A DNA stretch of 64,000 nt, from positions 15 through 64,014 of the forward strand of contig JAFAUQ010000007.1 in assembly GCA_019243195.1 (NCBI GenBank). The letters run 5' to 3'. The stretch comes from Hyphomicrobiales bacterium (GTDB lineage Bacteria > Pseudomonadota > Alphaproteobacteria > Rhizobiales > Xanthobacteraceae). Below, in pieces: positions 12,107 to 34,220 of the stretch. The stretch's first letter is position 1. The number at the start of each line of letters is the position of its first letter. The position numbers and the translations under genes are program-made. The notes beneath the pieces are model-generated. The model ran no database searches, had not been told where the DNA came from, and was given only the letters and a program-made list of their open reading frames with translations.

Positions 12107-12748
12107 GGACGCTTTGTCGAGATCGGCCCGTGGACCGAATTCCACCGAGGTAGCTGCGGCCGTTCGTGGACGACAGGCGCGCCGAACCCGCCGCGCTTGC
12201 CGAGCGCAGTTCTGAACAGCTCTTTCCAATCCACCTGGGATGAGGCTCTTGCTGGTATGGGCGCAGGCTGCCATACTCACTAAACTTGTATTATCTTTCG
12301 CCAATAAGCCATGGGCTGCGAAATTCCAGAAAACGGCACGCCCAAGCAAAAGAGTAGTAGCGTGAACAATTTCCGCAAGCCGCTTGAGCGCAGCCTAAAG
12401 GTAGTCGATAGGAAAACGCGTGATCGCGACGAACTCCGCGCAATTTTACTGATGCTCGACACCCTCGGCATCGTTAGTGAGCCGATTCCTTGGCTCGGGC
12501 AACTGCGCGTTTTGCTGGGCCGGAGACGCAAGATATTGAGTGTGCGCCGCAGCAAGTTTGATGAAAGTACGCGCCTTTATAGTTCGCTGATCCCAAGCGA
12601 GAAGGATGACGGGTTCCGCGCCGCCCCAATGAATCACCGTAACCCACTGCCTCGAGGCCGCAGGTCGAGGATCCTGATGGTGCTCGCACGTCGACCCCGA
12701 GCCAGGGCGGCCTCGACGGCTCAATACCGTCTTGCGCGAGTGGAGGCG

Positions 12749-13741
12749 ATGACGACAGTAGTCAACTGGACGGCGATGACCAAAGATGTGGCAGTCTGCC
12801 TATGCGGGTTACCCGATCCCGAGTTATCAACTCCAAACAACTTGCGGTTCGGCGCAAACGGATCGCTCAGTGTGAAGGTAAATTGCGCCGGGTTCTATGA
12901 TCGCGAAAACAACGTCGGTGGCAGCTTGGTCGACCTCGTCAAGCTGAAGCTGGGCGCCGACGATGCCGAAGCCATCGCATGGCTTGAACGCAAAGGATTC
13001 GTCGACGGCCAAGAACGCCCTAAGCCGCGTATCGTCAAAGCGTACGACTATCGTGACGAGCGCGGCGTCCTGCTCTACCAGGTATGCCGCCTCGAACCAA
13101 AGGCGTTCCTCGAGCGCCGACCGGATGCGCGCGGCGGCTTCGTCTCGAATATCAAGAACGTCCGGCGAGTCCTGTATCGTTTGCCTGAACTCGTTCAGGC
13201 CATTGCCGAGGACCGGACAATTTTTGTCGTCGAAGGTGAAAAGGACTGCGACACGCTTTCATCTCTCGGCCTGGCGGCGACATGTAACCTCGGAGGCGCT
13301 AATAAATGGCGCGCCAAGGACTCGGCAGCGCTACGCGGCGCTCGCGTAGTGCTGCTTCCGGACAACGATGAGGCTGGTCGTGAACACGTCGGGTCGGTGG
13401 GGCGAGCGCTCCAAGGAATTGCTGCCACCGTTCGCGTGCTCGATCGGCTTCCCATGCCGGAGCGCGGCGACATAACTGATTGGATCGCGGCGGGCGGTAC
13501 TGCGGATGCGCTTGCAAAGCTGGCTGAGCACGCAAGGGTCTGGACGCCTTCGAGTGCTGCGCGTGTCAGGCGAAAAGTGTCACGCTTGAAATGCACGACC
13601 TTCAACCCCACTGGTTCCGTAGCGGCGAAAAACCACCTTTCAAAAGAACTGGGCACGCGCGATGGCTTCGTCTTGGTCTGGGGTCCGCCAAAGCGTGCCC
13701 GAGGTTTTGTGACATTCGATGTCGTGGTGCATGCAGCCTGA
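12749..13741 (+). CDS. Toprim-domain primase-like protein (phage/plasmid type), probably a truncated remnant
   Basis: Toprim motifs IFVVEGEKDCD and LLPDNDEAGREH. The C-terminus ends shortly after Toprim with no helicase/NTPase domain. Lower-GC region; start uncertain. Confidence 0.6.
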   Translation: MTTVVNWTAMTKDVAVCLCGLPDPELSTPNNLRFGANGSLSVKVNCAGFYDRENNVGGSLVDLVKLKLGADDAEAIAWLERKGFVDGQERPKPRIVKAYDYRDERGVLLYQVCRLEPKAFLERRPDARGGFVSNIKNVRRVLYRLPELVQAIAEDRTIFVVEGEKDCDTLSSLGLAATCNLGGANKWRAKDSAALRGARVVLLPDNDEAGREHVGSVGRALQGIAATVRVLDRLPMPERGDITDWIAAGGTADALAKLAEHARVWTPSSAARVRRKVSRLKCTTFNPTGSVAAKNHLSKELGTRDGFVLVWGPPKRARGFVTFDVVVHAA

Positions 13742-14302: not shown

Positions 14303-15454
14303 TTATTGGGTCGCGGCGGTACGGCGTCGGCGCACAGCCCGAAGCGCGTCCGTAAGATGACTGCGCGATCCCATCCCAACCAGAGCACACGTGATGCCCG
14401 GCGCTCGGCTGGCAAAGGCGATCGCTTTTTCCGCGTCAGTCAGCGCCTTGTCCGAGCCTCCGGACAGTACCCCGGGCATGGCGAGGCTCCCACCAGCCAA
14501 CGTGGCGGAAGTGAGCACGAGCATGTCCTCTGCATGGGCGGCCGCGAGCAACGTCGCTCGTCCGTTGCGACCGCGCTGCGATCGCAACGTGGCGATCTCG
14601 CGCCACATCACGTTGTATGGAGCCTGTACGGCGGCAAAATGGTTTTCGCGGCCGCCCACATCGGCAGCGATGCTGCGCAGTCGATGCAGACTGAGATGAG
14701 CCGGCGCATCGTTGGTACAACGAAACGCTTCCCAGGTCGAAATCCCGAATTGACCGATATGGCCGCTGGCGCAGGCCTGCTCCAGCGCGTCGAAAGCTGC
14801 ACTCATGCGGCGCTCGAATTGATATTTCGACAAGCTGGCCGTGTGAACCTCGGGGTTGTGCAGCAGATAAAGATCGATCGTCGCCAGTCCCAGGTTGCGG
14901 CGACTGCGGGCAATTTGATCCGCTATAAATGCCGGAGCTATGCAGTGACTGCCGAGCAAGATATCGCCCGGCTTCAGCCCGAGTTGCTGCTGGTCGATAC
15001 GCGGGTCGAAGCGGCGATTCGCACCGCGTCCTCGCGGAGCGCGCGGCAGGTACCCGCATTTAGAGACCACGAATATCTCGTCACGTGCGGCGCTGCCGTT
15101 GCGGATCGAGTTTCGTAACGCTGCGCCAATTGCACGTTCGCAGGTCTGCGCGCCATAGCTTATGGCCGTGTCGATGACGTTGATGCCTCCGATCAAAGCC
15201 ATCTGCGCGACCCCGCGGTAGCGCTGACCACCCGCATCGTCGGAACCAAGCGAAGTCCCGAGGCCAACTCGTGATAAGCGCAGCTCGCGAAACGTCACGA
15301 ATTCAGTCGGGTGTCGCGAAGCATAGCGCCGCGTACCGGAGACTGTCGCTCGGCCCTTGACCAATTCTTCGCGAGCGGTTGCATCTCGCACCGCGCCGGA
15401 AAATCTGCTCACCACGGCCCCCGCCAAGCGACGCACCGCTGTACGCAGCGCCAT
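14303..15454 (-). CDS. aldo/keto reductase
   Basis: AKR tetrad context (IDTAISYG, FVVSKCGY, LLHNPE); start set at MALRTAV. Confidence 0.85.
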   Translation of the reverse strand: MALRTAVRRLAGAVVSRFSGAVRDATAREELVKGRATVSGTRRYASRHPTEFVTFRELRLSRVGLGTSLGSDDAGGQRYRGVAQMALIGGINVIDTAISYGAQTCERAIGAALRNSIRNGSAARDEIFVVSKCGYLPRAPRGRGANRRFDPRIDQQQLGLKPGDILLGSHCIAPAFIADQIARSRRNLGLATIDLYLLHNPEVHTASLSKYQFERRMSAAFDALEQACASGHIGQFGISTWEAFRCTNDAPAHLSLHRLRSIAADVGGRENHFAAVQAPYNVMWREIATLRSQRGRNGRATLLAAAHAEDMLVLTSATLAGGSLAMPGVLSGGSDKALTDAEKAIAFASRAPGITCALVGMGSRSHLTDALRAVRRRRTAATQ

Positions 15455-15582
15455 TCTAGAGTAAGATGCGAGAGCGCCAAGCGTCGTCGGCGGGTAGCCG
15501 GTCCAGCCGGATGTGTTTGGCCTTCCACCGGGAGCGGTGAAGCTTGGGATGTGTCTTGCAGGGCATTCCAGCCGCAATTTGG

Positions 15583-16134
15583 ATGTTTGGCCCGAACTGG
15601 ATCAGGAGCGAGATCTCACTCTCCACGCGAGAGTGTGATCGCCTGATAGAGATTGTCTCCTCAGCCGAATCGGACAACAAGCATGGCCGCGGAGGCGGCC
15701 GGTTGCGCCGGCGACGCGCCGGAAGACGCCACAAGTTGACCCTGACTCCACAGTCCGCATGGATGTATGACGTTCTCTATCAGGTCGTGACGGACGCCAA
15801 TCGCGAACGCTTCCGCTTGCTGCTCAGCGGGATCGAGCGTGCGCCGGAATATGTCGAGCAGACGGCCGGCAGCCGGCCCCTGCGCTGGCGCCGCGATTAT
15901 CGTCACAGGGATATTCACGATTCGTGCAAGCTGACAGTCATCTGCCAGCTGAGCGATCCTTCCGCCTATCGAGGGGGCGACTTGCAGATATTCGATGACG
16001 GCATAGCAACGACGGTGCCCGCTCGCGGCGGTTTTTTTGTTCTGCTCGGGGCGCTGTTTTGGCGGGTTACGCCCGTCACTCGCGGCGTACGGCGCTCCCT
16101 GGTATCCTGGTTTGCGGGGCCGAGAATGAGGTGA
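15583..16134 (+). CDS. 2OG-Fe(II) oxygenase-fold protein (P4H/PKHD-like) lacking both His metal ligands
   Basis: Paralog of 24403-25104 (KLTVICQLSD..GGDLQIF..RVTPVTRGVRRSLVSWFAGPR). HxD is RRD and the distal His is Trp. Confidence 0.75.
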   Translation: MFGPNWIRSEISLSTRECDRLIEIVSSAESDNKHGRGGGRLRRRRAGRRHKLTLTPQSAWMYDVLYQVVTDANRERFRLLLSGIERAPEYVEQTAGSRPLRWRRDYRHRDIHDSCKLTVICQLSDPSAYRGGDLQIFDDGIATTVPARGGFFVLLGALFWRVTPVTRGVRRSLVSWFAGPRMR

Positions 16135-16139
16135 GCGCG

Positions 16140-17024
16140 ATGCGGGGTTCAGGTTTCCATTTGACCGCGGAGGAGACCCGGCTGTTCAAAGAGCAGGGCT
16201 ACATCGTCCGGCCAAACGTCCTGTCGGCCCGCGAGGTCGACCTTCTCCGACGCGCATTGACCCCGGCCGAGCTGCGGCAGGATCGCCAGCCGCTTGCACG
16301 TCACAAGATCGACGCGCTGTGGCGACAACTGGTCAGGCACGCCCGCGTAGCCGGTCCGGTCGGCGAATTGTTTGGGGGCGTTCCGTGCGTCGTGCAATCG
16401 ATGATCGCGTTCAAGCCGCGGGCCCGGCCAGGGCGGCAGGCGCGCAACGGGATCGCTCTGCATCAGGATCAGCAATACATCAAGACAAAGCCGGCCGGCG
16501 TGATCGGTTGCTGGGTTGCACTTGATCACACCGATGCCGGCAACGGCGGATTCATGGTCGTGCCCGCCAGCCATTGCAAGGGTCTGCTTACGAGCCGGAG
16601 CCGCGAGGGTCGGCACTTCCAAAGCCACTCGGTCGTGCAGCACATGCGCGACTGCGATGGCAAGGAGTGGCACGAAACCGCAGATACTTTTGAGATTCCC
16701 GGCGTCAACTGGGACAACGCGATAGCACTCAACATCCCAAAAGGCGGCGCGGTCTACTTTGACGGATTCCTCGTCCACGGATCGCGCTCGAACACGGCCG
16801 AGGACCGAGATCGGCTTGCTGTCGCGATTCACTTCGTCAAGCAAGGAACCTGGGTATACCGGGTTGACCTCAATGACGTCTTCCCGGTCCGTCGCACTGT
16901 CCGCGAATTGCGCCGCAGAGGGAACGGCGCCCCGCGGTCGGCCGGGCGTCATCGCCCCAATGATCGGGGGGAGCGGGCAAACAGGCGAAAGGCAGGGACG
17001 AGGCGCAGGTATTCGAGTTCGTAG
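16140..17024 (+). CDS. phytanoyl-CoA dioxygenase (PhyH) family Fe/2OG oxygenase
   Basis: GYIVRPNVL, LHQDQ (HxD), WVALDHTDAGNGGFMVVPASH, distal FLVHGSRSN; the 3' end overlaps the convergent gene. Confidence 0.85.
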   Translation: MRGSGFHLTAEETRLFKEQGYIVRPNVLSAREVDLLRRALTPAELRQDRQPLARHKIDALWRQLVRHARVAGPVGELFGGVPCVVQSMIAFKPRARPGRQARNGIALHQDQQYIKTKPAGVIGCWVALDHTDAGNGGFMVVPASHCKGLLTSRSREGRHFQSHSVVQHMRDCDGKEWHETADTFEIPGVNWDNAIALNIPKGGAVYFDGFLVHGSRSNTAEDRDRLAVAIHFVKQGTWVYRVDLNDVFPVRRTVRELRRRGNGAPRSAGRHRPNDRGERANRRKAGTRRRYSSS

Positions 17025-17503
17025 GGCGTATGGTTGGCATCATGGCGATGGCCCGGATCATAGTAATGACCGCTGGTGAAGCCATCGAAACCGAAAACGT
17101 CCACCTGATAGCCCAACTCTTGAAGCAGCAGAAGAAGCGCGAAGCCGGTGGAGGGGCGCGGGAAAAGATGCCGCAGCCGGCAGCGCGCAGCAAATATCAT
17201 ACGACCGCGAAAGTGAGGTTTGATATTCGTCGATTCCGGCGCGATGGACGTGAACGGGCTGAGCGGCCTCAAGCCGTTGCGGCGACGGCGCGGTAAGGGG
17301 GGATTGACCGTCGTGTCACCGAAGGTGCACCAATGGGTGACGCGTGACCCGCACCATTGTTCATAGCCGTCGATCTGAAAGGCATTGATGCGAATTACCG
17401 TAGCGTAGCGGTCGATCACTTCTCCAAAACGGAAGTGGAAGCGACCATTGCCGATGACCGCGATTGGGCGCGAGAGCCCTGCGAGAAAAAGTTCCGTGAA
17501 CAT
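16949..17503 (-). CDS. GT29 (sialyltransferase)-like / DUF115-like glycosyltransferase-fold protein, short
   Basis: IAVIGNG...IDRYATVIRINAF (L-motif-like), PSTGFALLLLLQELGYQVDVFGFDG (S-motif-like), HYYD (motif III-like). Confidence 0.55.
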   Translation of the reverse strand: MFTELFLAGLSRPIAVIGNGRFHFRFGEVIDRYATVIRINAFQIDGYEQWCGSRVTHWCTFGDTTVNPPLPRRRRNGLRPLSPFTSIAPESTNIKPHFRGRMIFAARCRLRHLFPRPSTGFALLLLLQELGYQVDVFGFDGFTSGHYYDPGHRHDANHTPYELEYLRLVPAFRLFARSPRSLGR

Positions 17504-17567
17504 TATCTCTGCGGCAATGTTTTCCAGCTGAAGACATCGTGGCCGTTTGGAGATACAGCGCGCGCGA

Positions 17568-18779
17568 TCACGGGGAACGCCGCGGTTTGGCGCACCGGGT
17601 CAGGTATCCGTAGCGCAGAAGATCGTCCACGAGCTTGAGCTTGCTAGCGTCGTCGGCCGCGACCGGTAGATCGCGCACGCAGAACTCCAATCCCCGCGCA
17701 ATGTGCCGAAATGCCGGTTCGAGAGCGCGGTCGCCCCTGATGCTCGTGCCGGGCAGGTACAGGATGACCGACGGGCCGCTCACCTCGACGGTGCTTCGCA
17801 CGCCATCCGACAGCTTCAGCCGCGATGCCGTGGTCAGAGGCGCGGCCGCGGCGATATCGTGAAGGCCGCTGTGGGGTGGAAGATCGCTTTCGCTGAGCAA
17901 ACGTCCGCCCACCTGTGCGACGGCGACCGCGGTTTTCGGGTCGTCCGGTAGCCGTCGCGCCAGGTCCCGGAGCAGCCGACGATCGCGGGCACGAAGCCGT
18001 CCGTGCGAGGCAAATCCGCGCGGCAGATTGCGCCGGAACGGAGCGCTCGCGGTGAGGATGCCGCTGAAGACGTCGCGCCAAGTCGCCGGATGTACGCTCA
18101 GCGTGAGGTGCAGCGACAGGTCTTCCGTCGTGCAGGCTTCGTGCGCGACACCGCGTGGAATATAGACGACATCGCCGGGCGACAGCACGAGTTCGTGCGC
18201 CGGCTTTCCCGTTTCCTCAGGGGTGAGCGATTGCACCGGCGGCTCCACCGGCGCCTCAACCGTGCGACGGTAGATGCGCCAATGCTTATGCCCGGCGAGC
18301 TGCAGAATAAATACGTCGTGCGCGTCGTAGTGGGCGGCAAACCCTTGCGCCGAGCGCGGCGTGAAATAGCCGTTCGCCGCTATCGGCTGAGAGAGAAGCA
18401 CGCCCCGCTGGGTAAATTCGGCTTCGAGTTCCCGGCACAACCGGCCGATTCCAGCGTGGCGTCTGTGCAGCTTGGTCAAAAGCAGACTGTGACCTTGGCC
18501 GACGGCGCCGTAGACCTCGGCGAGGTCGAGTGTCCCCTCGCTTGTCAGCGCTGATTTTGGCGGCCGTTGCGCACGGCCCTTTACCAAGCTGAACCAACCA
18601 TCCTCGGGTGCGGCGAGCGACGCCAGGAGAAAATCATAGTCGGCGACGGAGGGCAGATCGTCATAGAAGTTCGAATCATTACGCTCGACGATCAATACTC
18701 TGCGTCCCCAATATGCCTGGAAGAATCGATCGATGCTGCGCGGGGCAATGAGGCCAGCAATCCCCGCACGACGCGACAT
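17568..18779 (-). CDS. JmjC/cupin-4 family Fe/2OG oxygenase (ribosomal-oxygenase-like)
   Basis: FAAHYDAHDVFILQLAGHKHWRIY and GDVVYIPRGVAHEA; C-terminal helical/winged-helix-like extension; ATG 18779 (alternative GTG 18791 overlaps the upstream stop). Confidence 0.85.
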   Translation of the reverse strand: MSRRAGIAGLIAPRSIDRFFQAYWGRRVLIVERNDSNFYDDLPSVADYDFLLASLAAPEDGWFSLVKGRAQRPPKSALTSEGTLDLAEVYGAVGQGHSLLLTKLHRRHAGIGRLCRELEAEFTQRGVLLSQPIAANGYFTPRSAQGFAAHYDAHDVFILQLAGHKHWRIYRRTVEAPVEPPVQSLTPEETGKPAHELVLSPGDVVYIPRGVAHEACTTEDLSLHLTLSVHPATWRDVFSGILTASAPFRRNLPRGFASHGRLRARDRRLLRDLARRLPDDPKTAVAVAQVGGRLLSESDLPPHSGLHDIAAAAPLTTASRLKLSDGVRSTVEVSGPSVILYLPGTSIRGDRALEPAFRHIARGLEFCVRDLPVAADDASKLKLVDDLLRYGYLTRCAKPRRSP

Positions 18780-18783
18780 CTGC

Positions 18784-20691
18784 TTAGGCACGACGCCCCC
18801 ATTTCCGTGGTGCGCCGCCCGGCAGCCGTTCTCGAACAGGCAACGCCAAGACCTCTCCTGCCTCTTGAAACACCAGGCCCAGATTGTCGAGCTCGTCGAG
18901 GGCGTCTTGCAGCGTTAGCGCGTCGAGATCCGGGAATTGAGCAAGTAGGTGCCGCTTGCGCGTCGGCCGGTCGCAAGCGAGGAAGAGTTCGCGCGCGCGC
19001 CCGGAAAGATTGACCAATTGGGACTCGTCGCCGCGATGGTCCGCGACGATGACGCACGCACCGCCGTCCCGAAAGGTCAGCATTTGAGAAAACCCCTCTC
19101 GGCGGCGTTGTTCATGATGGGCACGCCAACACCCTATGGCCGCTTCCATCTCATCCCATGCGGCCCGGGTGTCATCGTCCATGCTGGATTCAAATGGTAC
19201 GATTTGACAGACAGGCGCCTCGCTCAGAGCTTTTGGCAGAAAGCAAAGCCGCGCGCGGTCGAGGCTCTCCGAATAGATGCCGTATCTCTCCGGCTCGGCA
19301 TACATTCGACTGCCGCGGTCGAGGTAGAACTCGGCGGATGATGGTGGTCGATAACCGTACAGAGTCGGGAGCAGCTTCGTGGATTCGCGGAGTTCGGCAG
19401 CAGCTACGCCAGGCACGCGCAGCATGACGTTATACTGGAACGGGATGCCGAACTCTTCGCACAGTTTAATGGAAGCGATGTTGTCGATCGTCCGCGTACC
19501 CTTCTCCATGCGCGACAGGATGCCGGTATGGAAAGCTTCCACGCCGAGCTGAAGCCGGCGGGTTCCGGCCGCCGCCAGCAGCGCGGCCGTTTCCTCGTCG
19601 AGATCGCATCGCGCCTCGCAAAACAAGGTCACGTCCGGCGCCTCGGTTGCCAGCCGCCGCAACAGCTCCTTGGCATAGGCCGGAGGCAGATAGGCGTCGA
19701 TGAAACTCAGCTCCAGCACCTGAGTGCGCGCGATACTGGCGCGCATTTCCTCCCAGAGGGCATCGAGGGACTTCTGGCGGGCATTCGGAGAATTGCGGTA
19801 TAGCCCGCAAAACGTGCAGCCCCGCAGGCGGCCGTCGCCACGCCGGTGCTCCCAGGCGCATCCGCGCGAGGCCTCCATGGGCAGCACCAGCCCGGAGCGG
19901 GGATAGCCCGCATTCCGCGCGGCGTCGTAAAACTCCCCCATATCCGGGGGACGAGCGGTGTCGATATTGGCCTGCACCGAGGTTGGGCTCCGGCCGATCC
20001 CACCGTTGCCGTCGCGAAAGCGCAGGTTCGGCAGATCGGCAAGAACGCCCGCGCCCCAGTGCGGCAACCGCGCCAGCTTCGCGAGCGTCGCTTCTCCCTC
20101 GCCGTCGACGATCGCGTCGACCCAAGGCACGGCCCGGAGCAAATTGGCGCCTGGCTCGCCAAGAACGCCCCCGCCGCCGAGAATGACGCGCAGGTGCGGT
20201 GCGCGCCGCTTGAACTCGCGTGCCAGATAGAGGGAAGCGCCCAGTTGCAGTGCGCCGACCGAGATGCCGGCGAGGCTGTACTTCGTCAGGTCCAGCGCCG
20301 CGATCGCCGCTTGCGTGGCCTGCTCAACCTCGCGCAACGCGCCGTTTCGGGCCCAGTGCGCAAGTTCCGTGTCGCCGGCCCGTGTCAGCACATCGGCGGT
20401 GCGGTCCAGGATCTCGTGCGCCTCGTCGGGCGAATAGAGGGCGCAATAGAGCGCTTCTCCCAGCTCCCAGCCGTTGGCGACGCGATCGTAGCGGTCAAAT
20501 CCCAGACGTACGGCGACGTCGAAATGCAAATGCACGCCGTCGGCGGGAATGCCGTTGGCAGCAAGATGCGACTTGAGCACGCCAATGGCCAGCGAGGGCC
20601 ATGTCGCTAACCGCCAGGGTGCCGAAACCAGCAGAACGGCGTCCGGGTGATGCCCTTGCTTACTGGCCGAGGTGGTCGGCAGAGCGCCCAT
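18784..20691 (-). CDS. B12-binding-domain radical SAM protein (class B type)
   Basis: N-terminal Rossmann-like B12-binding region (AVLLVSAPW...), radical SAM core SRGCAWEHRRGDGRLRGCTFCG (Cx13Cx2C), GVEAF..ILSRMEKG; ATG 20691 (alternative TTG 20706). Confidence 0.85.
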   Translation of the reverse strand: MGALPTTSASKQGHHPDAVLLVSAPWRLATWPSLAIGVLKSHLAANGIPADGVHLHFDVAVRLGFDRYDRVANGWELGEALYCALYSPDEAHEILDRTADVLTRAGDTELAHWARNGALREVEQATQAAIAALDLTKYSLAGISVGALQLGASLYLAREFKRRAPHLRVILGGGGVLGEPGANLLRAVPWVDAIVDGEGEATLAKLARLPHWGAGVLADLPNLRFRDGNGGIGRSPTSVQANIDTARPPDMGEFYDAARNAGYPRSGLVLPMEASRGCAWEHRRGDGRLRGCTFCGLYRNSPNARQKSLDALWEEMRASIARTQVLELSFIDAYLPPAYAKELLRRLATEAPDVTLFCEARCDLDEETAALLAAAGTRRLQLGVEAFHTGILSRMEKGTRTIDNIASIKLCEEFGIPFQYNVMLRVPGVAAAELRESTKLLPTLYGYRPPSSAEFYLDRGSRMYAEPERYGIYSESLDRARLCFLPKALSEAPVCQIVPFESSMDDDTRAAWDEMEAAIGCWRAHHEQRRREGFSQMLTFRDGGACVIVADHRGDESQLVNLSGRARELFLACDRPTRKRHLLAQFPDLDALTLQDALDELDNLGLVFQEAGEVLALPVRERLPGGAPRKWGRRA

Positions 20692-20718
20692 CCCCACGCA
20701 TGGCAAAGCCGCCGCGGA

Positions 20719-20985
20719 TCAGCAGCTCGGTCCGCCCGGATTGGAGATGCACCCATCGCTCGCCATCATGCGCGCGCGCTGGTCCTTCAACAGCCCGGTG
20801 CTAAGTCTCTCGACATTCACGCTGAGGCTGTTATCGCGGGCAACCTTGACCATGCTGCGCGGCAGTTTCACCTTCCTGCTCGATGCTGCCGGGTGGCGCA
20901 CATTGAGCAACACTTTGGCCTTTATGCCACCCCGACCGGCGGCCTTCTTTGCACGCTTCTTTGCAGTCTTCCTTGCGCTCTTCAC
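20719..20985 (-). CDS. candidate substrate/precursor peptide (88 aa from GTG; alternative 44 aa from ATG 20853)
   Basis: In-frame GTG preceded by AGGGAG with 6-nt spacing, 29 nt after the rSAM/SPASM stop and 13-28 nt before the B12-rSAM start. GC3 about 70-80%. Sequence (V)KSARKTAKKRAKKAAGRGGIKAKV...MVKVARDNSLSVNVERLSTGLLKDQRARMMASDGCISNPGGPSC. Confidence 0.45.
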   Translation of the reverse strand: MKSARKTAKKRAKKAAGRGGIKAKVLLNVRHPAASSRKVKLPRSMVKVARDNSLSVNVERLSTGLLKDQRARMMASDGCISNPGGPSC

Positions 20986-21013
20986 TTGTTGCTCCCTTGC
21001 TTCATGTTGTCGA

Positions 21014-22570
21014 TCATTCCCATTCTCCAGCCAACACGTTCGCTGGAACTGCACCTGCATCGCTTTCGCTGAACGTGCGGACAAGATTACGAAGGCGATG
21101 AAGCTTGTCGTCGGCGGTGCAATTCGTCACGCGTCGATTGCCCGTGGCCTTGCCGTTCTGAATTCGGCAAGTTCCGCCGCACAGATTGCGAATATCGCAT
21201 CGGTTACAGCCGAGATTATGATCGACGTCGTACTCTTGCGCCACGCCTTCGAGCATGCCGATCAGCGCCGCCATGGGTTGCTTGTCCACGTGCGTGATCG
21301 CCCCGTCCAAAAGATGGCAGGGATGAACAGATCCATCCGAGGCGACCACAATCTGCTCGGCGTAGCCGCAGCCCTTGGTCCTGCGGGCAATCCGCGGGCC
21401 CGCACTTCCCTCGATCTGCTCCATCATCTGCTCGACCACGGGGCGGGTGTCGTTGATGTCGAGGGAATCCTCGATGTCGTCGCCTCGTCCGTGGTGGGTG
21501 AGCCCGTAGCCGAGGCGGAATTCGACATTTCGCCCGTCCCAGCGCTTGGTGAAATCGATGAACCCGGCCTTCATTGCGGCCCAGTTGCGTTCCATTACGA
21601 CCATGCCGATGCGGACACGCACCCCCGCGGCGACCAGGAAGTCCACCGCCTCGACGGCCCGCCGGAAGCTGCCAGGTCCGCGGATCGGATCGTTTGTAGC
21701 AGCGTCGGGGCCGTCGATGCTTATCTGCACCTGATCGACATAGCTGCGAATGGCGTCGATGTGGCGCTGGATCAAGATGCCGTTCGAGAACAGCGTCACG
21801 TCGAGGCGGCGCGCATGGGCACGCTCAAGCAGACGGTCGCATCCCGGATAAACCAAGGCCTCCCCGCCGGTGAACAGGATTCGCTCGCCGCCAGCGTCGG
21901 CGAAATCGTCGATAACCTTCAGCCACCTCTCGACCGACATCTGTCCTTTGGTTGAAACATGCGGACTCGAATCGGCATAGCAATGCACACAACTCAGATT
22001 GCATCGTTGCGTTAGATGAAGGCGCATGAAACGCCGCGGCTGCGGCTTCCAGACATCGGTATACCCTTCGATACCGCGGACGAAACCCGCCGTCGCGAGC
22101 CGGCCGATCAACGCATGGACCTGAGCAGCAACCCGGCGTCTCGTTCTTGCGCCGCGATCGCCGGCGATTAGCGCCGCGATCGCGTCAGGGGGCGTGCCGT
22201 CGCGCAGGCGCAGGAACAGCGCGTGTTCCTGCTTCGACATCGTGATGGCTATCCCTTCCTCAACACCGATCCAAAGGTGCGCGCCGTCCACAAGCCGATG
22301 CGAAAGCGTTTCCACCAGCGGCAGCGGCGTGCCGAGCGGCACCCGATACTTTCCCTCGCCGGTCTGCACGGCTGGCGGCGCGTCGCGCATTGATTGCGGC
22401 GCGCGCCACAGTTCGTGCAGCGTCGTGCGATCCAACTCGCGCTTGCCTTCGATGATATGGGCGGCGAGGGCATCCGGGCGGGGCAGTTCATACGAACTCG
22501 CCGGCGCCAGGCGACTTGGCGGAGGGGCAATAACCGATGCTGAGGATCGCCCGCGTGCCAGTTCAGGCAT
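21014..22570 (-). CDS. radical SAM/SPASM-domain peptide-modifying enzyme with N-terminal PqqD/RRE-like domain
   Basis: CNLSCVHC (Cx3Cx2C). C-terminal SPASM pattern GSVHPC...CNRCDIRNLCGGTC...C. N-terminal SKQEHALFLRLRDGTPPDAIAALIAG...ALIGRLATAGFV resembles PqqD-type RRE. ATG 22570 has AAGGTG upstream (alternative TTG 22591). Confidence 0.9.
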   Translation of the reverse strand: MPELARGRSSASVIAPPPSRLAPASSYELPRPDALAAHIIEGKRELDRTTLHELWRAPQSMRDAPPAVQTGEGKYRVPLGTPLPLVETLSHRLVDGAHLWIGVEEGIAITMSKQEHALFLRLRDGTPPDAIAALIAGDRGARTRRRVAAQVHALIGRLATAGFVRGIEGYTDVWKPQPRRFMRLHLTQRCNLSCVHCYADSSPHVSTKGQMSVERWLKVIDDFADAGGERILFTGGEALVYPGCDRLLERAHARRLDVTLFSNGILIQRHIDAIRSYVDQVQISIDGPDAATNDPIRGPGSFRRAVEAVDFLVAAGVRVRIGMVVMERNWAAMKAGFIDFTKRWDGRNVEFRLGYGLTHHGRGDDIEDSLDINDTRPVVEQMMEQIEGSAGPRIARRTKGCGYAEQIVVASDGSVHPCHLLDGAITHVDKQPMAALIGMLEGVAQEYDVDHNLGCNRCDIRNLCGGTCRIQNGKATGNRRVTNCTADDKLHRLRNLVRTFSESDAGAVPANVLAGEWE

Positions 22571-22757
22571 GACCCGCACCTTTGAAGACAACCGTTAGTC
22601 GTCGCACCAAATATTATAAGTAGCATCCCATGGTTGAAATGGGCTGTCAATCCGAATATCGTAATCGGTGCGCGCCCGCGGCGGAGCCTCTCGGCGCTCT
22701 GGCCGGTGCCGGAAGGCCGTCGACACTTGCGTTCGGACGCGCGTGCGGAGCGGGACC
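22571..22757. promoter_or_regulatory. divergent intergenic control region of the cassette
   Basis: 187-bp gap between divergently transcribed rSAM operons, containing the only AT-rich stretch locally (caccaaatattataagtagcatcc). Confidence 0.4.
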
Positions 22758-24440
22758 ATGCTTGTTTGCGCACCATTCCATTCGGTCGCCAACCCACCCG
22801 TCGGCATGGCGTACCTCGCCTCTTATCTGGGGGAACGCGGCATCGACTGCCGGCCGCGTGACATCAACATAGAGGCGCGGGAATTTGTCCGCGCGCTTCC
22901 CGGGCCGGACGGTAAGCCGGGCGCATTTGCCGCGATCGCAGATGATCTGTTTGCCTTGGCGCGCAGGACGTATCTCGGCGAGGCCGCGGCCTGGTCGTGG
23001 TTCGATTCGGGCGGCCTCGAAGCGGTCGCTGCGCGTGCCCTGAATCATCCGGTCAAGGCGATCCGCGACTTCTGGAGGGGCGCGGAGATAGAGCGTCTGG
23101 TCTCTGACGGCGCGCTGCGCCACGTGAGCGCCGCTCTGCACGATTGGCTTCTGCGCCAAGCCGAGGCGATTGCAGGCGCTGCGGCCGGTTGGGTCGGCTT
23201 TTCGACCACCATAACGAATTTCGCGCCGACCTTGTTCCTCGCGCGACGCATGCGCGAACTCGATCCGGATTTGCTGCTCATCATCGGCGGACCGCACATC
23301 TCGGCTCGCAACGCGGCCCAGATCCTGCGCGCGTGCCGCGTATTCGACTTTGCCGTGCCGACACCGGCGTTCGCGGCGCTTGAATCTTTGCTCGCCGACA
23401 TCGGTCGCGCACGGCACGGGCCCTTGCCGCCCGGCGTCTGGCGGGCGCGACGCGAGGCCACCTCCGGCAATGGTTCGTCCGCCGCCTCCGCCGTTGACAT
23501 CGAGTGTGGCAGCGGACAGGTCCGCATGGATCTCAACGCACTGCCGCCGGCGGATTGGACCTGGGCACGCCTCTCCCGTTACGACTCCGGCTTTTTGATG
23601 AAGAACACATCCGGCGATTTCACCAAATGGTATCCTACCATCCCGGTGCAGACATCGCGCGGATGCTCTTACAGCCGGTGCAAGTTCTGCCACAACGTCG
23701 TCGACTATCCAAAGTACAGCATGCAGCGTCCCGAACGCGTCGCCCAGGAGGTCAGGCATCAGATCGCCACGGTCGGCAGCCGCGGCTTTTTCTTCACCGA
23801 CGACGAGTTCAGCGGCTCGCGCAGGCGCACGGTCGAGATTGGCCGCGAGTTGCGGGCGCTGGATGAGGAGGTTCGATACTCCTGCTGGGTCCGTCTTGAC
23901 AAAATCGATGCCGAATTACTCGACGATATGTACGCCGCGGGAGCGCGCCAGCTGTTCATCGGAGTCGAGGCCGTAGATGACGACATTCTGCTGCTCATGG
24001 ACAAGGGCTACGGCTCACGCGAAGCGCTGCGCAACCTGAAGCTTCTGTACCAGTTCGCAGACCGTCATCCGGATCTGGTCTACGTCTTCAATCTCATAGT
24101 GGATTATCCCGGCGAGACGCTCGCATCCGTCCGCAGAACCCTCGCCGTCGTGGCTGAGAACCCCGAGCTGTTCGTCGGCAAGGTCGCCGCCTGCTGCGTG
24201 TTCCATCTGTACGAGGGGACGCCGGCTTTCGAGCAACTGGGAGACGGCGCCACCGCGTGCATCGATCCGCTCCTGCCGGCCGATGTCACGGTCCCGGACC
24301 TACGCTATCTATATCCGCCGGTCGGTGTCGAAACCCGTCCCGACCGTATGGAGATTTGGTCGGCGATTGCGGAATTCGTGCGCTTCAAGGAACCCCACGA
24401 TCATGGTCACTCGCGCAACACGGTCGCGATCTACGACTGA
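22758..24440 (+). CDS. B12-binding-domain radical SAM protein (class B type), second copy
   Basis: GGAG 8 nt upstream of the ATG; N-terminal MLVCAPFHSVANPPVGMAYLASYL; core SRGCSYSRCKFCHN (Cx4Cx2C); GVEAVDDDILLLMDKG. Confidence 0.85.
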   Translation: MLVCAPFHSVANPPVGMAYLASYLGERGIDCRPRDINIEAREFVRALPGPDGKPGAFAAIADDLFALARRTYLGEAAAWSWFDSGGLEAVAARALNHPVKAIRDFWRGAEIERLVSDGALRHVSAALHDWLLRQAEAIAGAAAGWVGFSTTITNFAPTLFLARRMRELDPDLLLIIGGPHISARNAAQILRACRVFDFAVPTPAFAALESLLADIGRARHGPLPPGVWRARREATSGNGSSAASAVDIECGSGQVRMDLNALPPADWTWARLSRYDSGFLMKNTSGDFTKWYPTIPVQTSRGCSYSRCKFCHNVVDYPKYSMQRPERVAQEVRHQIATVGSRGFFFTDDEFSGSRRRTVEIGRELRALDEEVRYSCWVRLDKIDAELLDDMYAAGARQLFIGVEAVDDDILLLMDKGYGSREALRNLKLLYQFADRHPDLVYVFNLIVDYPGETLASVRRTLAVVAENPELFVGKVAACCVFHLYEGTPAFEQLGDGATACIDPLLPADVTVPDLRYLYPPVGVETRPDRMEIWSAIAEFVRFKEPHDHGHSRNTVAIYD

Positions 24441-25104
24441 AGCCGTCGCGCCGCCGGGCTCGCGCGGGCTGATCCGCTGGGTTGCGAAGGCGGGAAGCCG
24501 CGGCGGACGGTTTCGCATTCCAATCCGGACGGTTGGTGGCCCGCGCGACGGATATTTTCATCTTGACTGGGTGAAGTGTGCGACACGTCTATCGTCCAGG
24601 CAATGCGATGAGATCATCAGAACAGGGGAAGGGTTCGCGCCGGAGGCGCCGACGGTCGTTGGCGAGAACATTCTTTCTGCGCACCGGGTCGGACACGTAC
24701 GTCTGCTTCCCGACGTCGCCCAGACCGAGCCGATTTATCGTCTGCTGTGGGACGTAGCCGCCGACGCGGCAAATCGGCACTACGGGCTGGCCATCACCGG
24801 CATTACCCGCATGCCGCATTACGTCGAGTATCACGCCGGCTATGGGCACTTCCACTGGCACAACGATTACAGTCACGAGTCGCAGGAATCGCCTCGCAAG
24901 TTGACCGTCATCGTGCAACTCAGTGACGGCGACGACTACGACGGCGGCGACCTGCAAGTCTTCAATGTTGCGCCTGAAGCGATGCCGCGCGAGCGGGGCA
25001 CCATCATCTGCCTGCCGTCATTCGTCACGCACCGCGTAACGCCGGTAAGCGCCGGCGTGCGACGGATCGTGGTTGCCTGGATCGCGGGCCCGAGGCTGGT
25101 ATGA
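24403..25104 (+). CDS. 2OG-Fe(II) oxygenase (P4H/PKHD-like), ligands intact
   Basis: HWHNDY (HxD), THRVTPV distal His, GVRRIVVAW Arg. Start uncertain: ATG 24403 overlaps the upstream gene; alternative GTG 24571. Confidence 0.8.
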   Translation: MVTRATRSRSTTEAVAPPGSRGLIRWVAKAGSRGGRFRIPIRTVGGPRDGYFHLDWVKCATRLSSRQCDEIIRTGEGFAPEAPTVVGENILSAHRVGHVRLLPDVAQTEPIYRLLWDVAADAANRHYGLAITGITRMPHYVEYHAGYGHFHWHNDYSHESQESPRKLTVIVQLSDGDDYDGGDLQVFNVAPEAMPRERGTIICLPSFVTHRVTPVSAGVRRIVVAWIAGPRLV

Positions 25105-25889
25105 GCGTCGCGGCGATAGCGCGCGCGTCCGGCGAGACGAAGTCGAGCCGACCAAGGTACGATGTAGCCCGCATTATAAGCACGATCCGCGAGCGCGGCT
25201 TCTGCGTGGTTCCCAACCTGATCCCGGGTCGCCGCTGCGACGCCCTCGGTGCGGCGCTGCGGCGTCTGCTCCGGGAGGAAGAGCAGGTCAACAGGCGGCC
25301 AAACGGCCATCAGCGCGTTCTCCATCTGGCGGCGAAGCATGCTCGTTTTGTCGACCTGGTGACGCATCCGCTGGTGCTGTCGGTGTGGCGCGGTTATCTG
25401 GGCGACGACATGCTATGCTCGTCGCTGACTGCCAACGCGCTTTGGCCGGGCTGCAGCGAGCAGTACTGGCATGTCGACCACCCGTATTGGACGATGGCGC
25501 AGCCCTATCCAGTCGACCTGCCGCTCGCAACGCAGACGATCTGGATGTTGGACGATTTCACCGTCGAGAACGGGGCGACGGCTGGAATCGCGGGGAGCCA
25601 TCGTCGGCCGCATCTTCCGAGCATCGGTGCAGCATGGACCGAAGAGGGCACGATTTTTACCGGTCGCCGCGGCAGCGCTGTTCTGATGGATGGAGCGCTC
25701 TGGCATACGTCGCGCCCGAATCTTACCGAGGCGATGCGCTGCGGAGTTCTGGTTAAGTACATTCGCAGCTTCTGCGTTACACAAGAGGACATGCGCCTGC
25801 AGCTCGCAGCGATCAAGCGCCCGTCGAAAACGGTCGAGCAACTTTTCGGCGCCCATCAGTATGTGCCCACCCGCAGCTTTCCTTATTAG
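25101..25889 (+). CDS. phytanoyl-CoA dioxygenase (PhyH) family Fe/2OG oxygenase (PhnY/TmpA-like position)
   Basis: ATGA overlap with the upstream stop; GFCVVPNLI, YWHVDHP (HxD), ENGATAGIAGSH, ALWHTSRPN. Confidence 0.85.
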   Translation: MSVAAIARASGETKSSRPRYDVARIISTIRERGFCVVPNLIPGRRCDALGAALRRLLREEEQVNRRPNGHQRVLHLAAKHARFVDLVTHPLVLSVWRGYLGDDMLCSSLTANALWPGCSEQYWHVDHPYWTMAQPYPVDLPLATQTIWMLDDFTVENGATAGIAGSHRRPHLPSIGAAWTEEGTIFTGRRGSAVLMDGALWHTSRPNLTEAMRCGVLVKYIRSFCVTQEDMRLQLAAIKRPSKTVEQLFGAHQYVPTRSFPY

Positions 25890-26506
25890 TGAGAGCGACG
25901 ATGCGGACCGGTTCAAAAAATGCGGGGGTACGGACGAGACGAAAGGTGCGCCGTGCCATCATTCAAAGCACGCCCGAAATGCCGAGTCTGGTGCTCAAAT
26001 GGCTGCGCCGTCTGCGCCGCGACGTAAATGGTCGACGGGTCGACCAGCTCACACACAGTTTGCAAACCGCGACGCTCGCCTTTCAGGCCGGCGCCGCCGA
26101 CGACATCATCGTCGCGGCGCTCTGTCACGACATCGGCAAGGCCGTATCCTGGGTCGACCACGGCAGGCGCAGCGCGGATATTATCAAGCCCTATGTAACG
26201 TCCGCAGCGTACTGGGTCGTTGCTGCCCACGACGACTTCCTTGCTGTCTACAACATCAACCGGAGCGGGCTCGACCCCTACGCGTTTCGCGAGAAGCACG
26301 CTCGGAGACGCTGGTACAAGACCGCGGTCGTGTTCGCCGATGAATGGGATTCGATGGCGTACGATCCAACGATCAAACCGTTGTCATTGCGCTATTTTGA
26401 ACCCCTGATCCGCCGAGTGTTTGCGGCTACCCGCAGGCGAGCGGAACGGGATACGGGACTGGCGCTCATCCAGGAGCTGGAGAGCGTCATACCGGCAGAT
26501 CGCTGA
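25889..26506 (+). CDS. HD-domain protein, PhnZ/TmpB/MIOX-like (putative mixed-valent diiron oxygenase)
   Basis: QLTHSLQTATLAFQAGAADDIIVAALCHDIGK then DHG.., AAHDD.., ADEWD gives an H..HD..H..H..D pattern; GTG 25889 overlaps the PhyH stop (alternative ATG 25901). Confidence 0.75.
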   Translation: MRATMRTGSKNAGVRTRRKVRRAIIQSTPEMPSLVLKWLRRLRRDVNGRRVDQLTHSLQTATLAFQAGAADDIIVAALCHDIGKAVSWVDHGRRSADIIKPYVTSAAYWVVAAHDDFLAVYNINRSGLDPYAFREKHARRRWYKTAVVFADEWDSMAYDPTIKPLSLRYFEPLIRRVFAATRRRAERDTGLALIQELESVIPADR

Positions 26507-29893: not shown

Positions 29894-30382
29894 ATGCGCG
29901 GCGACCCGGGCGTCATCGATTTTCTAAACAAGGCGCTGCGGCACGAGTTGACCGCGGTCAATCAGTATTGGCTCCATTACCGCCTGCTCGACAATTGGGG
30001 CTACCGCGCGCTCGCCAAACAGTGGCGCAAGGAATCGATCGAGGAAATGGAGCACGCCGACAAGCTCGTCGCGCGCATTATCTTTCTCGACGGTTTCCCC
30101 AACATGCAGGTGCTCGATCCGCTGCACATCGGCCAGACGGTGAGAGAGGTGCTCGACTGCGATCTCGCGACCGAACTCTCCGCGCGCGCCCTCTACCAGG
30201 AGGCGTCCGGCTATTGCCACGGTGTCCAGGACTACGTGACGCGTGACCTGTTCGAGAAGCTCATGGCGGATGAGGAAAGTCACATTGATTTTCTCGAGAC
30301 CCAGCTCGATCTCGTCGCCAAGCTCGGGCTCGAACTCTACGCCCAACATCACATCGGCGAGCCGGAAAAAGACGACGACTGA
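29894..30382 (+). CDS. bfr: bacterioferritin
   Basis: [37 protein letters not shown]...EEMEHADKL...[12 protein letters not shown]. Confidence 0.95.
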
Positions 30383-30398
30383 GCTACAAGTTTTTCGA

Positions 30399-33107: not shown

Positions 33108-33212
33108 GGATCCGGCTCCGCTGAAAACGGCAGTATCTTACCGCGCCCGGCGATTCGGGCCACGCGTCTTTGCTCGCGGCTGTGCGGAAACCGGTTCAAC
33201 TTTTCCGGAATG

Positions 33213-34220
33213 TCAGCCGCGCGCGCCGAGCCGCAGTCCGGCGGCCGGGCGTTCCTGGATCACTTCGCGGCGAAAACGAAACAGCGCCGCCGGCCGGCCG
33301 CCGGTCGCCGTCGATGTCTCGCCGGTCGGCTCGACCAGGGCGGTCGATTCCACCAGCCGCCGGAAATTCTGCTTGTGCACGAGGCGCCCGGAGATCGCCT
33401 CGACCGTGCGCTGGAGCGCGGTGAGCGTGAACTCGTCGGGCATCAACTCGAACACCACCGGCCGGTATTTGAGCTTGGCGCGCAGCCGGGCGATCGCGGT
33501 TGCGAGAATGCGGCGATGGTCGAAGCGCATGGGCTTCCCGAGCGGCGGCAGCGCGCCGCGCGCGAGCGCCGCCGGCCGGCCGTCGCGGCGCGCTTCTTCG
33601 ACCAAGCCTGCTTCGTAGAGCAATTCATAGCGGTCGAGCGTCTTCTCTTCGTCCCATGGGCTGCCCTCGATGCCGAAGCACAGGCGAAGCCGTTCGCGCC
33701 GGGAGAGCGCGCGGCGTGGCTCCGGCCCGGTCGAGCGCCGCGCCCATTCGGTGAGCAGCGGCAGGATGGTTTCGTCGAGAATCGCCGGGCGCGCGGTGCG
33801 CCAATCTTCCCATGGAAAGAACCGGTACCACGGCTCGAAGCCGGCGCCGGCCGCGATGAGCGGGTCAACGTTCTCCGGCATGCGGATGAGCGCGAGATAA
33901 CCGACCGACACCACGTGCGGGCCGGTGTCGCGCGGCAGCGCATGGCGGCCGCGATCGCCGAAAGTGTAGAGCTGCTCGACGTAGCCCACGCGCAGGCCGG
34001 TTTGCGCCTCGACCCAGGCGCGTAACCCGATTTCGAACGTGTGATGGGCAAGCGGATCGAATGGGCCGAACGGCAAACCCTTCGACCGGTCCGGATTCGC
34101 GCCAGTGTCGCCTGCGTCCAGGATCGCCGGCGCATCCGCCTCCATGGTGACGATCGCCGCGGTCAGTCCGATCTCGATCGGCGTGAGGACCGTGTCGGTC
34201 ATTTTATCAAATGAGGTCAA
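33213..34220 (-). CDS. Nudix-like / NrtR-like 'NAD regulator' family protein
   Basis: N-terminal degenerate Nudix-like domain (GLRVGYVEQLYTFGD) and a C-terminal winged-helix-like region; family assignment from memory, moderate confidence. Confidence 0.55.
   Translation of the reverse strand: MTSFDKMTDTVLTPIEIGLTAAIVTMEADAPAILDAGDTGANPDRSKGLPFGPFDPLAHHTFEIGLRAWVEAQTGLRVGYVEQLYTFGDRGRHALPRDTGPHVVSVGYLALIRMPENVDPLIAAGAGFEPWYRFFPWEDWRTARPAILDETILPLLTEWARRSTGPEPRRALSRRERLRLCFGIEGSPWDEEKTLDRYELLYEAGLVEEARRDGRPAALARGALPPLGKPMRFDHRRILATAIARLRAKLKYRPVVFELMPDEFTLTALQRTVEAISGRLVHKQNFRRLVESTALVEPTGETSTATGGRPAALFRFRREVIQERPAAGLRLGARG

Follow-up and report, generated by a model that had tools for sequence, protein, structure and literature searches.

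Is the compact group of radical S-adenosylmethionine (rSAM) enzymes and oxygenases at positions 14303-26506 of a Hyphomicrobiales genome segment a peptide-modifying system and, if so, which peptide does it modify? The segment, referred to here as the window, comprises 64,000 nucleotides of contig JAFAUQ010000007.1 (assembly GCA_019243195.1, positions 15 to 64,014); the region is identical to contigs of the Hyphomicrobiales metagenome-assembled genome (MAG) GCA_019237825.1 and of several metagenome assemblies. An earlier note had described a twelve-gene cassette resembling the systems that make peptides which the ribosome synthesizes and which are modified after translation (RiPPs), with an 88-amino-acid (aa) open reading frame (ORF) as the possible substrate. 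We find that the cassette is real and that the RiPP reading is well supported. As a whole, the locus is best explained, with a good deal of confidence, as a RiPP cluster in which the C-terminal core of the 88-aa precursor is modified by an rSAM/SPASM enzyme and additional tailoring enzymes.

Related loci (designated L005, L012 and so forth) were gathered from the neighbourhoods of rSAM/SPASM homologues, from a peptide-motif scan of 185,579 species genomes and from a plasmid collection. Every locus was scored by tblastn with the window's proteins.

A conserved precursor peptide

The features that carry this reading are the following:

20719-20985, minus strand: precursor peptide gene, 88 aa, with a GTG start and the ribosome-binding site AAGGGAG ahead of it
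20722..20754, minus strand: codons for the 11-residue C-terminal core GCISNPGGPSC, with the stop codon directly after
21014-22570, minus strand: rSAM/SPASM enzyme with a modelled N-terminal RiPP recognition element (RRE); Pfam Radical_SAM, 90 bits, plus Fer4_12
17568-18791, minus strand: JmjC_2 Fe/2-oxoglutarate (2OG) hydroxylase; Pfam JmjC_2, 103.6 bits

The 88-aa ORF encodes a true precursor peptide, one of a conserved family. The window peptide ends ...ASDGCISNPGGPSC-stop. Behind a variable, Lys/Ala-rich N-terminus it carries the leader motif LPxxxV...L.V...L...DQRxRM (family consensus LPxxxV...L.I...KL...DQ), and the core G-C-I-S-N-P-G-G-P-S-C, which holds the peptide's only two cysteines, closes the protein. 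Among 1.8 billion representative proteins, an exhaustive phmmer search detected 33 related clusters, with every alignment reaching the C-terminal residue, and a profile search gave 245 precursor clusters at 90% identity. The ending C-x5-GP-x-C-stop is present in 125 of 125 retrieved members, usually in the form GC(I/V)SNPGGP(G/S)C. Over 102 distinct tails, five residues never vary, namely G(-11), C(-10), G(-4), P(-3), C(-1), and another five reach 95% conservation or more: D(-21), Q(-20), S(-8), N(-7), P(-6). Pairwise differences between the core codons of the loci comprise 1067 synonymous and 327 non-synonymous changes, and the loci between them use all four Gly codons and each of the three stop codons. 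Since the codon variation is mostly synonymous and every stop codon is used, it is the protein sequence that is conserved, including the point at which it ends.

The precursor gene adjoins the SPASM gene in 21 of 21 independent loci and nearly always lies directly after it. The conserved family, its near-invariant C-terminal core and this adjacency support the proposal that the 88-aa ORF is the substrate of a RiPP-like cassette. The leader had also been judged not to be of the NHLP/Nif11 type, in agreement with the zero NCBIfam and zero Pfam matches obtained for the precursor. A Pfam domain is absent from all 245 precursor clusters, and the source names shown all read 'hypothetical protein'. 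No description of the family was found in Pfam, NCBIfam or the searchable literature, the coverage of which excludes most subscription journals, and nothing relevant to the core motif (ISNPGGP, SNPGGP) was found in that literature. The precursor family appears to be unnamed and undescribed.

Several members show variations. The precursor on plasmid pSCAT of Streptomyces cattleya (L029) has the core GCFSNIGGPSC, in which Ile replaces Pro-6. In a subfamily comprising L009, L020, L024 and L029, NQS(Y/F)GM stands in place of DQRxRM, and two JmjC genes are present. The precursor ORF of the Kofleriaceae locus L009 (11518-11766) was missed by the gene finder and has a double-glycine motif, EDELTQANGG, approximately 41 residues from its C-terminus.

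The rSAM/SPASM maturase

By its structural model, the rSAM/SPASM enzyme carries an RRE-type leader-binding domain. In an alignment of 48 homologues, the rSAM motif CX3CX2C (C190/C194/C197) and the SPASM cysteines C401, C418, C455, C458, C464, C468 and C484 are invariant. The AlphaFold model (predicted local distance difference test, pLDDT, 86.5) has a beta3-alpha3 arrangement of RRE topology at residues 88-161, with strands at 88-94, 97-102 and 107-111, helices at 113-123, 128-136 and 141-161, and a block-mean pLDDT of ~95. Foldseek matched the enzyme to SkfB, CteB, SuiB, TigE and PqqE, with alignments of ~450 columns to RRE-containing enzymes, and a profile search aligned residues 88-299 to CteB 11-237. 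The pairing of rSAM/SPASM with an RRE, which had been proposed from the sequence, is borne out by the model, by folds that match CteB, SuiB and TigE over the full length and by the CteB profile alignment. Pfam PqqD gave no match on the N-terminus of the SPASM protein, on the C-termini of the two B12-binding rSAM (B12-rSAM) enzymes described below or on the JmjC C-terminus. The best NCBIfam matches of the rSAM/SPASM enzyme were StsB, AlbA, SkfB, PapB and MftC, all far below cutoff.

The cassette has the three characters of RRE-dependent rSAM/SPASM RiPP pathways, namely the Cys motifs, the fused RRE and an adjacent small precursor gene, and it works most like such pathways, with a proteusin-type B12-rSAM and oxygenases of the protein-hydroxylase type added. 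Sactipeptide and ranthipeptide systems (SkfB, CteB, AlbA, StsB, PapB) share the N-terminal RRE on the maturase and the adjacent precursor gene; their maturases are the closest matches in both sequence and fold, and the core cysteines of the window's peptide are likely cross-link donors. However, the resemblance is distant (112 bits, where cutoffs are at least 625), the core here has two cysteines only, in a fixed C-x8-C-stop arrangement, and a JmjC protein is the universal partner. We know of no sactipeptide or ranthipeptide pathway with a JmjC hydroxylase, and of no characterised pathway in which an rSAM/SPASM enzyme and a JmjC protein of the ribosomal oxygenase (ROX) type form the universal maturase pair.

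Conservation across genomes and accessory gene sets

The 21 independent loci span Alpha-, Beta- and Gammaproteobacteria, Myxococcota, Acidobacteriota and Actinomycetota (four phyla). Proteobacterial hosts include Burkholderia thailandensis, Mycetohabitans endofungorum (on a plasmid), Pseudomonas sessilinigenes, Rhizobium leguminosarum, Allosphingosinicella and Xanthobacteraceae. The others include Kofleriaceae, three Acidobacteriota, Egibacteraceae, Ilumatobacteraceae, another Actinomycetota MAG, Actinomadura terrae and S. cattleya pSCAT; several loci are unbinned contigs. Co-localisation of the core genes in all of these, for which a neighbourhood comparison had been proposed as a check, is far beyond chance.

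JmjC is the second universal enzyme of the family beside rSAM/SPASM, being found in 20 of the 21 loci; the exception is a truncated 5.7-kb contig. Its closest solved proteins are the ribosomal oxygenases NO66 (E 4e-30), MINA53 and YcfD, which are protein His/Arg hydroxylases, and its iron triad, read from the translation as HYD...H (AHYD, GVAHE), has the HxD...H form of the ROX type. A 2025 survey of RREs noted RiPP-like contexts for homologues of bacterial JmjC (PF08007) proteins (PMC12710340). Three loci (L007, L008 and L014) have SPASM, precursor and JmjC matches alone. The conserved core is the rSAM/SPASM enzyme with its modelled RRE, the precursor and the ROX-type JmjC protein. All twelve ORFs of the proposed cassette are present in the window, but they do not form a conserved unit of twelve; the core comprises three to six genes.

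Around this core, two accessory sets were recognised. Set A consists of a fused TfuA-YcaO protein, a carbamoyltransferase and an unknown 400-aa protein, with the addition of ThiS in B. thailandensis and of a C39-ABC exporter in Kofleriaceae (L009 20957-21521, at the end of the cluster). Set B, to which the window belongs, consists of a second B12-rSAM, a protein resembling glycosyltransferase family 29 (GT29) and a second PhyH protein, to which the window adds an HD-domain protein and an aldo-keto reductase (AKR). TfuA-YcaO is found in 9 related loci. The absence of YcaO that had been noted holds for the 64-kb window, where tblastn with the B. thailandensis TfuA-YcaO finds nothing; it does not hold for the family, which is broader, since relatives carry TfuA-YcaO and the carbamoyltransferase. 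With neither YcaO nor TfuA, the window differs from the thioamidated RiPPs that depend on both. Counterparts of all twelve window genes occur in one genome only, a Xanthobacteraceae MAG (L012), at 41-79% identity.

The B. thailandensis locus (L005) apparently belongs to the same family. Its SPASM protein is 64% identical and its B12-rSAM 55% identical to those of the window, JmjC, 2OG and PhyH proteins are present, and the precursor ends GCISNPGGPGC. It differs in having TfuA-YcaO, ThiS, the carbamoyltransferase and the unknown 400-aa protein, where the window has the second B12-rSAM, the GT29-like protein, the second PhyH, HD and AKR instead. A 2021 genome-mining survey of thioamides listed as unassigned a B. 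thailandensis cluster with a fused tfuA-ycaO and two rSAM genes; neither the precursor family nor the JmjC core was described in it (PMC8120280). In the searchable literature on such enzyme combinations, this entry was the only relevant one, the other papers dealing with unrelated pathways. The apy (aminopyruvatide) cluster of B. thailandensis was considered as an identity and rejected; it is a different biosynthetic gene cluster, the ApyD of which makes beta-methyl-Tyr.

The accessory enzymes partition with the residue at position -12, two before the first core Cys (Asp in the window, codon 20755-20757). Counted regardless of kinship, all 9 loci with TfuA-YcaO have M or T here, all 7 that encode the second B12-rSAM have D, N or Q, and the three minimal loci have I. 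The pattern suggests modification reaching upstream beyond the 11-residue tail, with YcaO and the second B12-rSAM as enzymes that may act at or beside position -12.

A peptide whose core varies so little might instead be the source of a cofactor, metallophore or signal, with the invariant core excised or used in place, as for pyrroloquinoline quinone (PQQ) or mycofactocin. The extreme invariance over Proteobacteria, Myxococcota, Acidobacteriota and Actinomycetota, the two fixed cysteines and fixed C-terminus, the lack of immunity and export genes in the window, the presence of mycofactocin and PQQ maturases among the rSAM/SPASM matches and the adjacent AKR oxidoreductase all speak for this. 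We nevertheless consider it improbable. The family is rare and patchy, with the strict core motif in 11 of 185,579 species genomes, and two of its copies are on plasmids: the Mycetohabitans copy (L028) is on a conjugative plasmid between IS5, IS481 and IS21 elements, and the S. cattleya copy is on the pSCAT megaplasmid. There is no conserved partner dehydrogenase, the Kofleriaceae locus has a C39-ABC exporter, and modular accessory tailoring resembles natural-product diversification. The pSCAT locus (NC_016113.1 165044-184360) contains two JmjC genes, 2OG, SPASM, TfuA-YcaO and PhyH, and the PLSDB record has no annotation over this stretch.

The ROX-type JmjC and the YcaO of the relatives raise another alternative, by analogy with ribosomal protein uL16. 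In E. coli uL16, Arg81 is hydroxylated and Met82 is thioamidated (PMC13063428). Set A pairs a ROX-type JmjC with YcaO, and a precursor M-G dipeptide recalls the thioamidated Met82-Gly83, a likeness that is resemblance only and may reflect coincidence or mimicry. JmjC and YcaO occur together with such a dipeptide in L005, L011, L013 and L018. The family differs from the ribosomal oxygenases (YcfD/RoxA, NO66, MINA53) and uL16 in having a dedicated small peptide and no Arg at a fixed position, and the window lacks YcaO. On this analogy, the 88-aa protein could remain uncleaved and be decorated as an intact small basic protein. The ROX-type JmjC, the TfuA-YcaO added in relatives, the membership of both in the enzyme families that modify uL16 (PMC13063428), the Lys/Ala-rich N-termini of many precursors and the lack of a protease in the window are consistent with such a role. 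We regard it as quite improbable: the N-terminal region differs greatly in length among members and many of those of 47-70 aa lack it, conservation is concentrated in the leader-like motif and the C-terminal tail, which is the classic RiPP layout, and the double-glycine motif and C39 exporter of one relative favour cleavage. Together, these last two features suggest a processed, secreted peptide at least in the Kofleriaceae lineage.

B12-binding rSAM enzymes and Fe/2OG oxygenases

The remaining rSAM enzymes and oxygenases of the window are as follows:

18784-20706, minus strand: first B12-rSAM (part entry 18784..20691); TIGR03975, 299.7 bits against a cutoff of 281.85
22758-24440, plus strand: second B12-rSAM (class B); Pfam B12-binding and Radical_SAM
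24403..25104, plus strand: intact 2OG-FeII_Oxy_3 protein (P4H/YbiX-like), within ORF 24283-25104, start codon uncertain; Pfam, 50 bits
25101-25889, plus strand: PhyH copy b; Pfam PhyH, 83 bits, ligands HVD...H
15544-16134, plus strand: 2OG-like, ligand-less paralog; 2OG-FeII_Oxy_3, 23 bits, below the gathering score
16059-17024, plus strand: PhyH copy a (part entry 16140..17024); Pfam PhyH, 80 bits, ligands HQD...H

The match of the first B12-rSAM to TIGR03975 (RiPP maturation radical SAM C-methyltransferase) covers model positions 1-606, and orthologs occur in 10 other loci (11 of the 21 in all). Its cluster cysteines form a non-canonical CX13CX2C (SRGCAWEHRxxDGxLRGCTFCG), which the orthologs keep, with CX12 in two; no relative of solved structure was found by sequence. 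A tie between Ile or Tyr at core position 3 and this enzyme was considered and rejected, as Ile also occurs in loci without it. The second B12-rSAM scores under cutoff with both TIGR03975 (104 bits) and PhpK (93 bits) and weakly matches AprD4 and OxsB. It has a non-canonical CX4CX2C motif that is kept in its orthologs, which are found at 41-78% in L010, L012, L019, L023, L026 and L027.

The intact 2OG protein retains its HWHND and HRVTPV ligands and is encoded in 17 of the 21 loci; PhyH copy b is encoded in 14, mostly beside the 2OG gene. The earlier note had singled out a 2OG paralog without ligands, and alignment with six active homologues agrees, both His ligands being replaced (HWHND by RWRRD, HRVTPV by WRVTPV). 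This paralog is probably a decaying duplicate, because its L012 ortholog (16400-17020, minus strand) has an in-frame stop (SYLE*LPG) besides the same His-to-Arg and His-to-Trp changes.

The B12-rSAM also bears on whether the cassette is a known system. The earlier note had pointed to a 'rhizo-twelve' system, and a proteusin cluster of the polytheonamide type can be considered with it. In favour of these identities are the twelve ORFs, the B12-rSAM and the Hyphomicrobiales (Rhizobiales-type) host. TIGR03975, which we take to include the polytheonamide methyltransferases PoyB and PoyC, was the only model to reach its cutoff in an NCBIfam scan of all twelve proteins. Proteusin pathways likewise combine a TIGR03975-type B12-rSAM with Fe/2OG hydroxylases on a ribosomal peptide; in polytheonamide biosynthesis, PoyB and PoyC are B12-rSAM C-methyltransferases and PoyI is a hydroxylase. 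However, the leader here is not of the NHLP/Nif11 type, there is no PoyD-type epimerase, N-methyltransferase or LanM, and the core is short and invariant instead of long and variable. The 'rhizo-twelve' lead failed: TIGR04295, its B12-rSAM marker model in TIGRFAMs, gave the first B12-rSAM 25.2 bits against a cutoff of 400 and was not listed for the second, no other member models matched, and the term had no match in the papers searched. We give either identity almost no credence.

Sialyltransferase-like, HD and reductase genes

Four additional genes complete the cassette and its border:

16949-17503, minus strand: GT29-like protein, 184 aa; Pfam Glyco_transf_29, 42 bits, cutoff 23
25889-26506, plus strand: HD-domain protein; Pfam HD, 28.7 bits
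14303-15577, minus strand: AKR (part entry 14303..15454); Pfam Aldo_ket_red, 76.8 bits
13780..14190, plus strand: SecDF-P1-head-like small secreted protein; Pfam SecDF_P1_head, 24 bits, below cutoff

Motifs and predicted fold place the GT29-like protein in the GT29 sialyltransferase family. Its own family totals 15 clusters in a database of 5.8 billion proteins, and all of them retain sialylmotifs L, S, III and VS (IAVVGNG...ID.HD.VIRFN, PSTG...DVFGFDG, HYYD and H....E in the alignment). The profile match among solved structures was ST3Gal-I (E 5e-9), and the top Foldseek matches of a moderate model (pLDDT 72) were ST3Gal-I, ST6GalNAc2 and ST8SiaIII (2wnb, 6apj, 5bo7), with which the protein shares the sialylmotifs and the GT-A-variant fold. 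It differs from these enzymes in being bacterial, short (184-230 aa), without a stem or transmembrane region, and set in a RiPP cluster; it is among the enzyme types of this family that are uncommon in RiPP pathways. Genes for CMP-sugar donor synthesis were not found in the 64-kb window. All four genomic contexts seen for the GT29-like gene are this cluster type, and in each a PhyH gene runs convergently to it. In the window, this partner is PhyH copy a, which overlaps the GT29-like gene by 76 bp (16949-17024); the convergent pairing is conserved in L012, L026 and L027, with overlap also in the latter two. This shared arrangement suggests that the two are a functionally coupled pair. To our knowledge, GT29-type glycosylation with a CMP-ulosonic acid in a bacterium would be the first such RiPP modification reported.

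The HD protein has weak similarity to the diiron oxygenases PhnZ and TmpB (TIGR03276, 35 bits against a cutoff of 215), and it aligns weakly to PhnZ 4mlm (E 3e-5) over residues 29-80 only, with later ligand candidates seen by eye. As in the PhnY/PhnZ system, a PhyH-type hydroxylase gene is followed immediately by an HD gene with its best matches to PhnZ and TmpB; the scores here are far below cutoffs, the first H...HD segment alone aligns, there is no phosphonate context, and HD occurs in two loci. The plus-strand operon (B12-rSAM, 2OG, PhyH, HD) might accordingly be a separate small-molecule pathway, for example PhpK/PhnY/PhnZ-type phosphonate tailoring or catabolism. The 93-bit match of the second B12-rSAM to PhpK-type P-methyltransferases and the weak PhyH and HD matches to PhnY-type hydroxylases and PhnZ/TmpB would fit, and yet all of these scores are far below family cutoffs, and neither PEP mutase nor a phosphonate transporter is nearby. 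Moreover, the 2OG/PhyH pair accompanies the SPASM-precursor-JmjC core in 13-17 of the 21 loci, in varying orientation and with the HD gene absent, and in L010, L026 and L027 the second B12-rSAM lies within the precursor operon. A separate pathway is therefore very improbable.

The HD and AKR genes are peripheral to the cluster. The former has an ortholog in L012 only, and the latter has a 58% ortholog there and is absent from all other loci. The SecDF-P1-like gene, which encodes a hydrophobic N-terminus and converges on the AKR gene, is also otherwise found only in L012 (18388-18795, 41% identity). The AKR/SecDF-P1-like arrangement is the same in both genomes, and the outer flanks differ; the SecDF-P1-like gene is a possible thirteenth member of the cluster.

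Locus layout and flanking regions

ORF listing, translation and Pfam/NCBIfam scans confirmed the twelve ORFs and their domains at the coordinates that the earlier note had assigned to them. Its junctions are likewise correct: 28 nt separate the SPASM and peptide genes, the B12-rSAM and JmjC genes overlap by 8 nt, and 64 nt lie between JmjC and the GT29-like gene, while the genes of the plus-strand operon overlap one another as described. The two operons diverge from the following region:

22571..22757: divergent intergenic region, the presumed promoter site by gene layout

In this region, a single weak sigma-70-like match was found (22634-22662), at or below chance expectation, and no Rfam element. 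Riboswitches, tRNAs, promoters and terminators were sought and were either not found or at chance level.

A Toprim/primase-like gene at 12311-13741 (plus strand; NF005477, 90 bits, below cutoff) borders the cassette, the GC content of which (0.59-0.64) is lower than that of its flanks (0.65-0.69) in the composition of 12-27 kb. The lower GC and the bordering gene suggest horizontal acquisition of the cassette. Elsewhere in the window, positions 30000-34000 have a very high GC content (0.71) and a strong AT skew (+0.27 to +0.30); per the L001 gene map, this stretch probably encodes the DUF2339 membrane protein. Between 37000 and 39000, the GC content drops separately to 0.56.

Proposed pathway and its limits

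In the RiPP pathway that we favor, the rSAM/SPASM enzyme would bind the leader and use a 5'-deoxyadenosyl radical to form a core cross-link through one or both invariant cysteines. The cross-link would most likely be a thioether of the sactipeptide or ranthipeptide type, a best guess made because of the nearest relatives of the enzyme and the lack of aromatic residues in the core. The JmjC protein, the P4H-like 2OG oxygenase and PhyH copy b may hydroxylate core side chains, with Pro, Asn, Ser and Ile as candidate sites, and the TIGR03975 B12-rSAM would C-methylate an unactivated carbon. The second B12-rSAM is predicted to act at or near position -12, because the enzyme is present where that residue is Asp, Asn or Gln. 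PhyH copy a could produce a hydroxyl to which the GT29-like transferase then adds a sugar, with a CMP-activated ulosonic acid as a plausible donor. The HD (PhnZ-like) protein and AKR, arranged like PhnY then PhnZ, may contribute further oxidation and reduction specific to this sublineage. Leader removal and export would be carried out by unlinked functions, as the window encodes neither a protease nor an exporter.

Several observations weigh against this explanation. The putative reaction assignments rest on homology well under family cutoffs (for StsB, 112 bits against 625), and antibiotic RiPPs do not typically keep a core so constant from phylum to phylum. The 64-kb window lacks genes for a leader protease, an exporter or immunity. 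An RRE in the C-termini of the first B12-rSAM and JmjC proteins was not significant by hhalign against the SPASM RRE alignment (2.6% and 0.5%, respectively). The counts behind the covariation at position -12 carry no phylogenetic correction, and linkage of the HD, AKR and SecDF-like genes in two related genomes only could be simple synteny.

The invariance of the core also prompts a bolder version of the pathway, which we offer tentatively and with low confidence. The product might be a previously unknown kind of small, conformationally locked peptide, for which a radical SAM cross-linker and a ROX-type hydroxylase would work on the invariant GCISNPGGPxC tail. Its core would be kept for a conserved physical role or target, such as metal/redox chemistry, a cofactor or ribosomal-loop mimicry, and not as an arms-race antibiotic. 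In the sublineage of the window, it would also be glycosylated by the GT29-type transferase with CMP-ulosonic acid.

Conclusions

These results are of interest to natural-product and radical-SAM specialists. The covariation at position -12 allows specific predictions of where YcaO and the second B12-rSAM would react. Minimal three-gene versions make the chemistry directly testable, and culturable, genetically tractable hosts are at hand in B. thailandensis, P. sessilinigenes, R. leguminosarum, S. cattleya and Actinomadura terrae. If our reading is correct, the locus belongs to a new RiPP family, with a core peptide conserved over four phyla and modular tailoring sets, one of which may hold the first sialyltransferase-fold enzyme in peptide natural-product biosynthesis.

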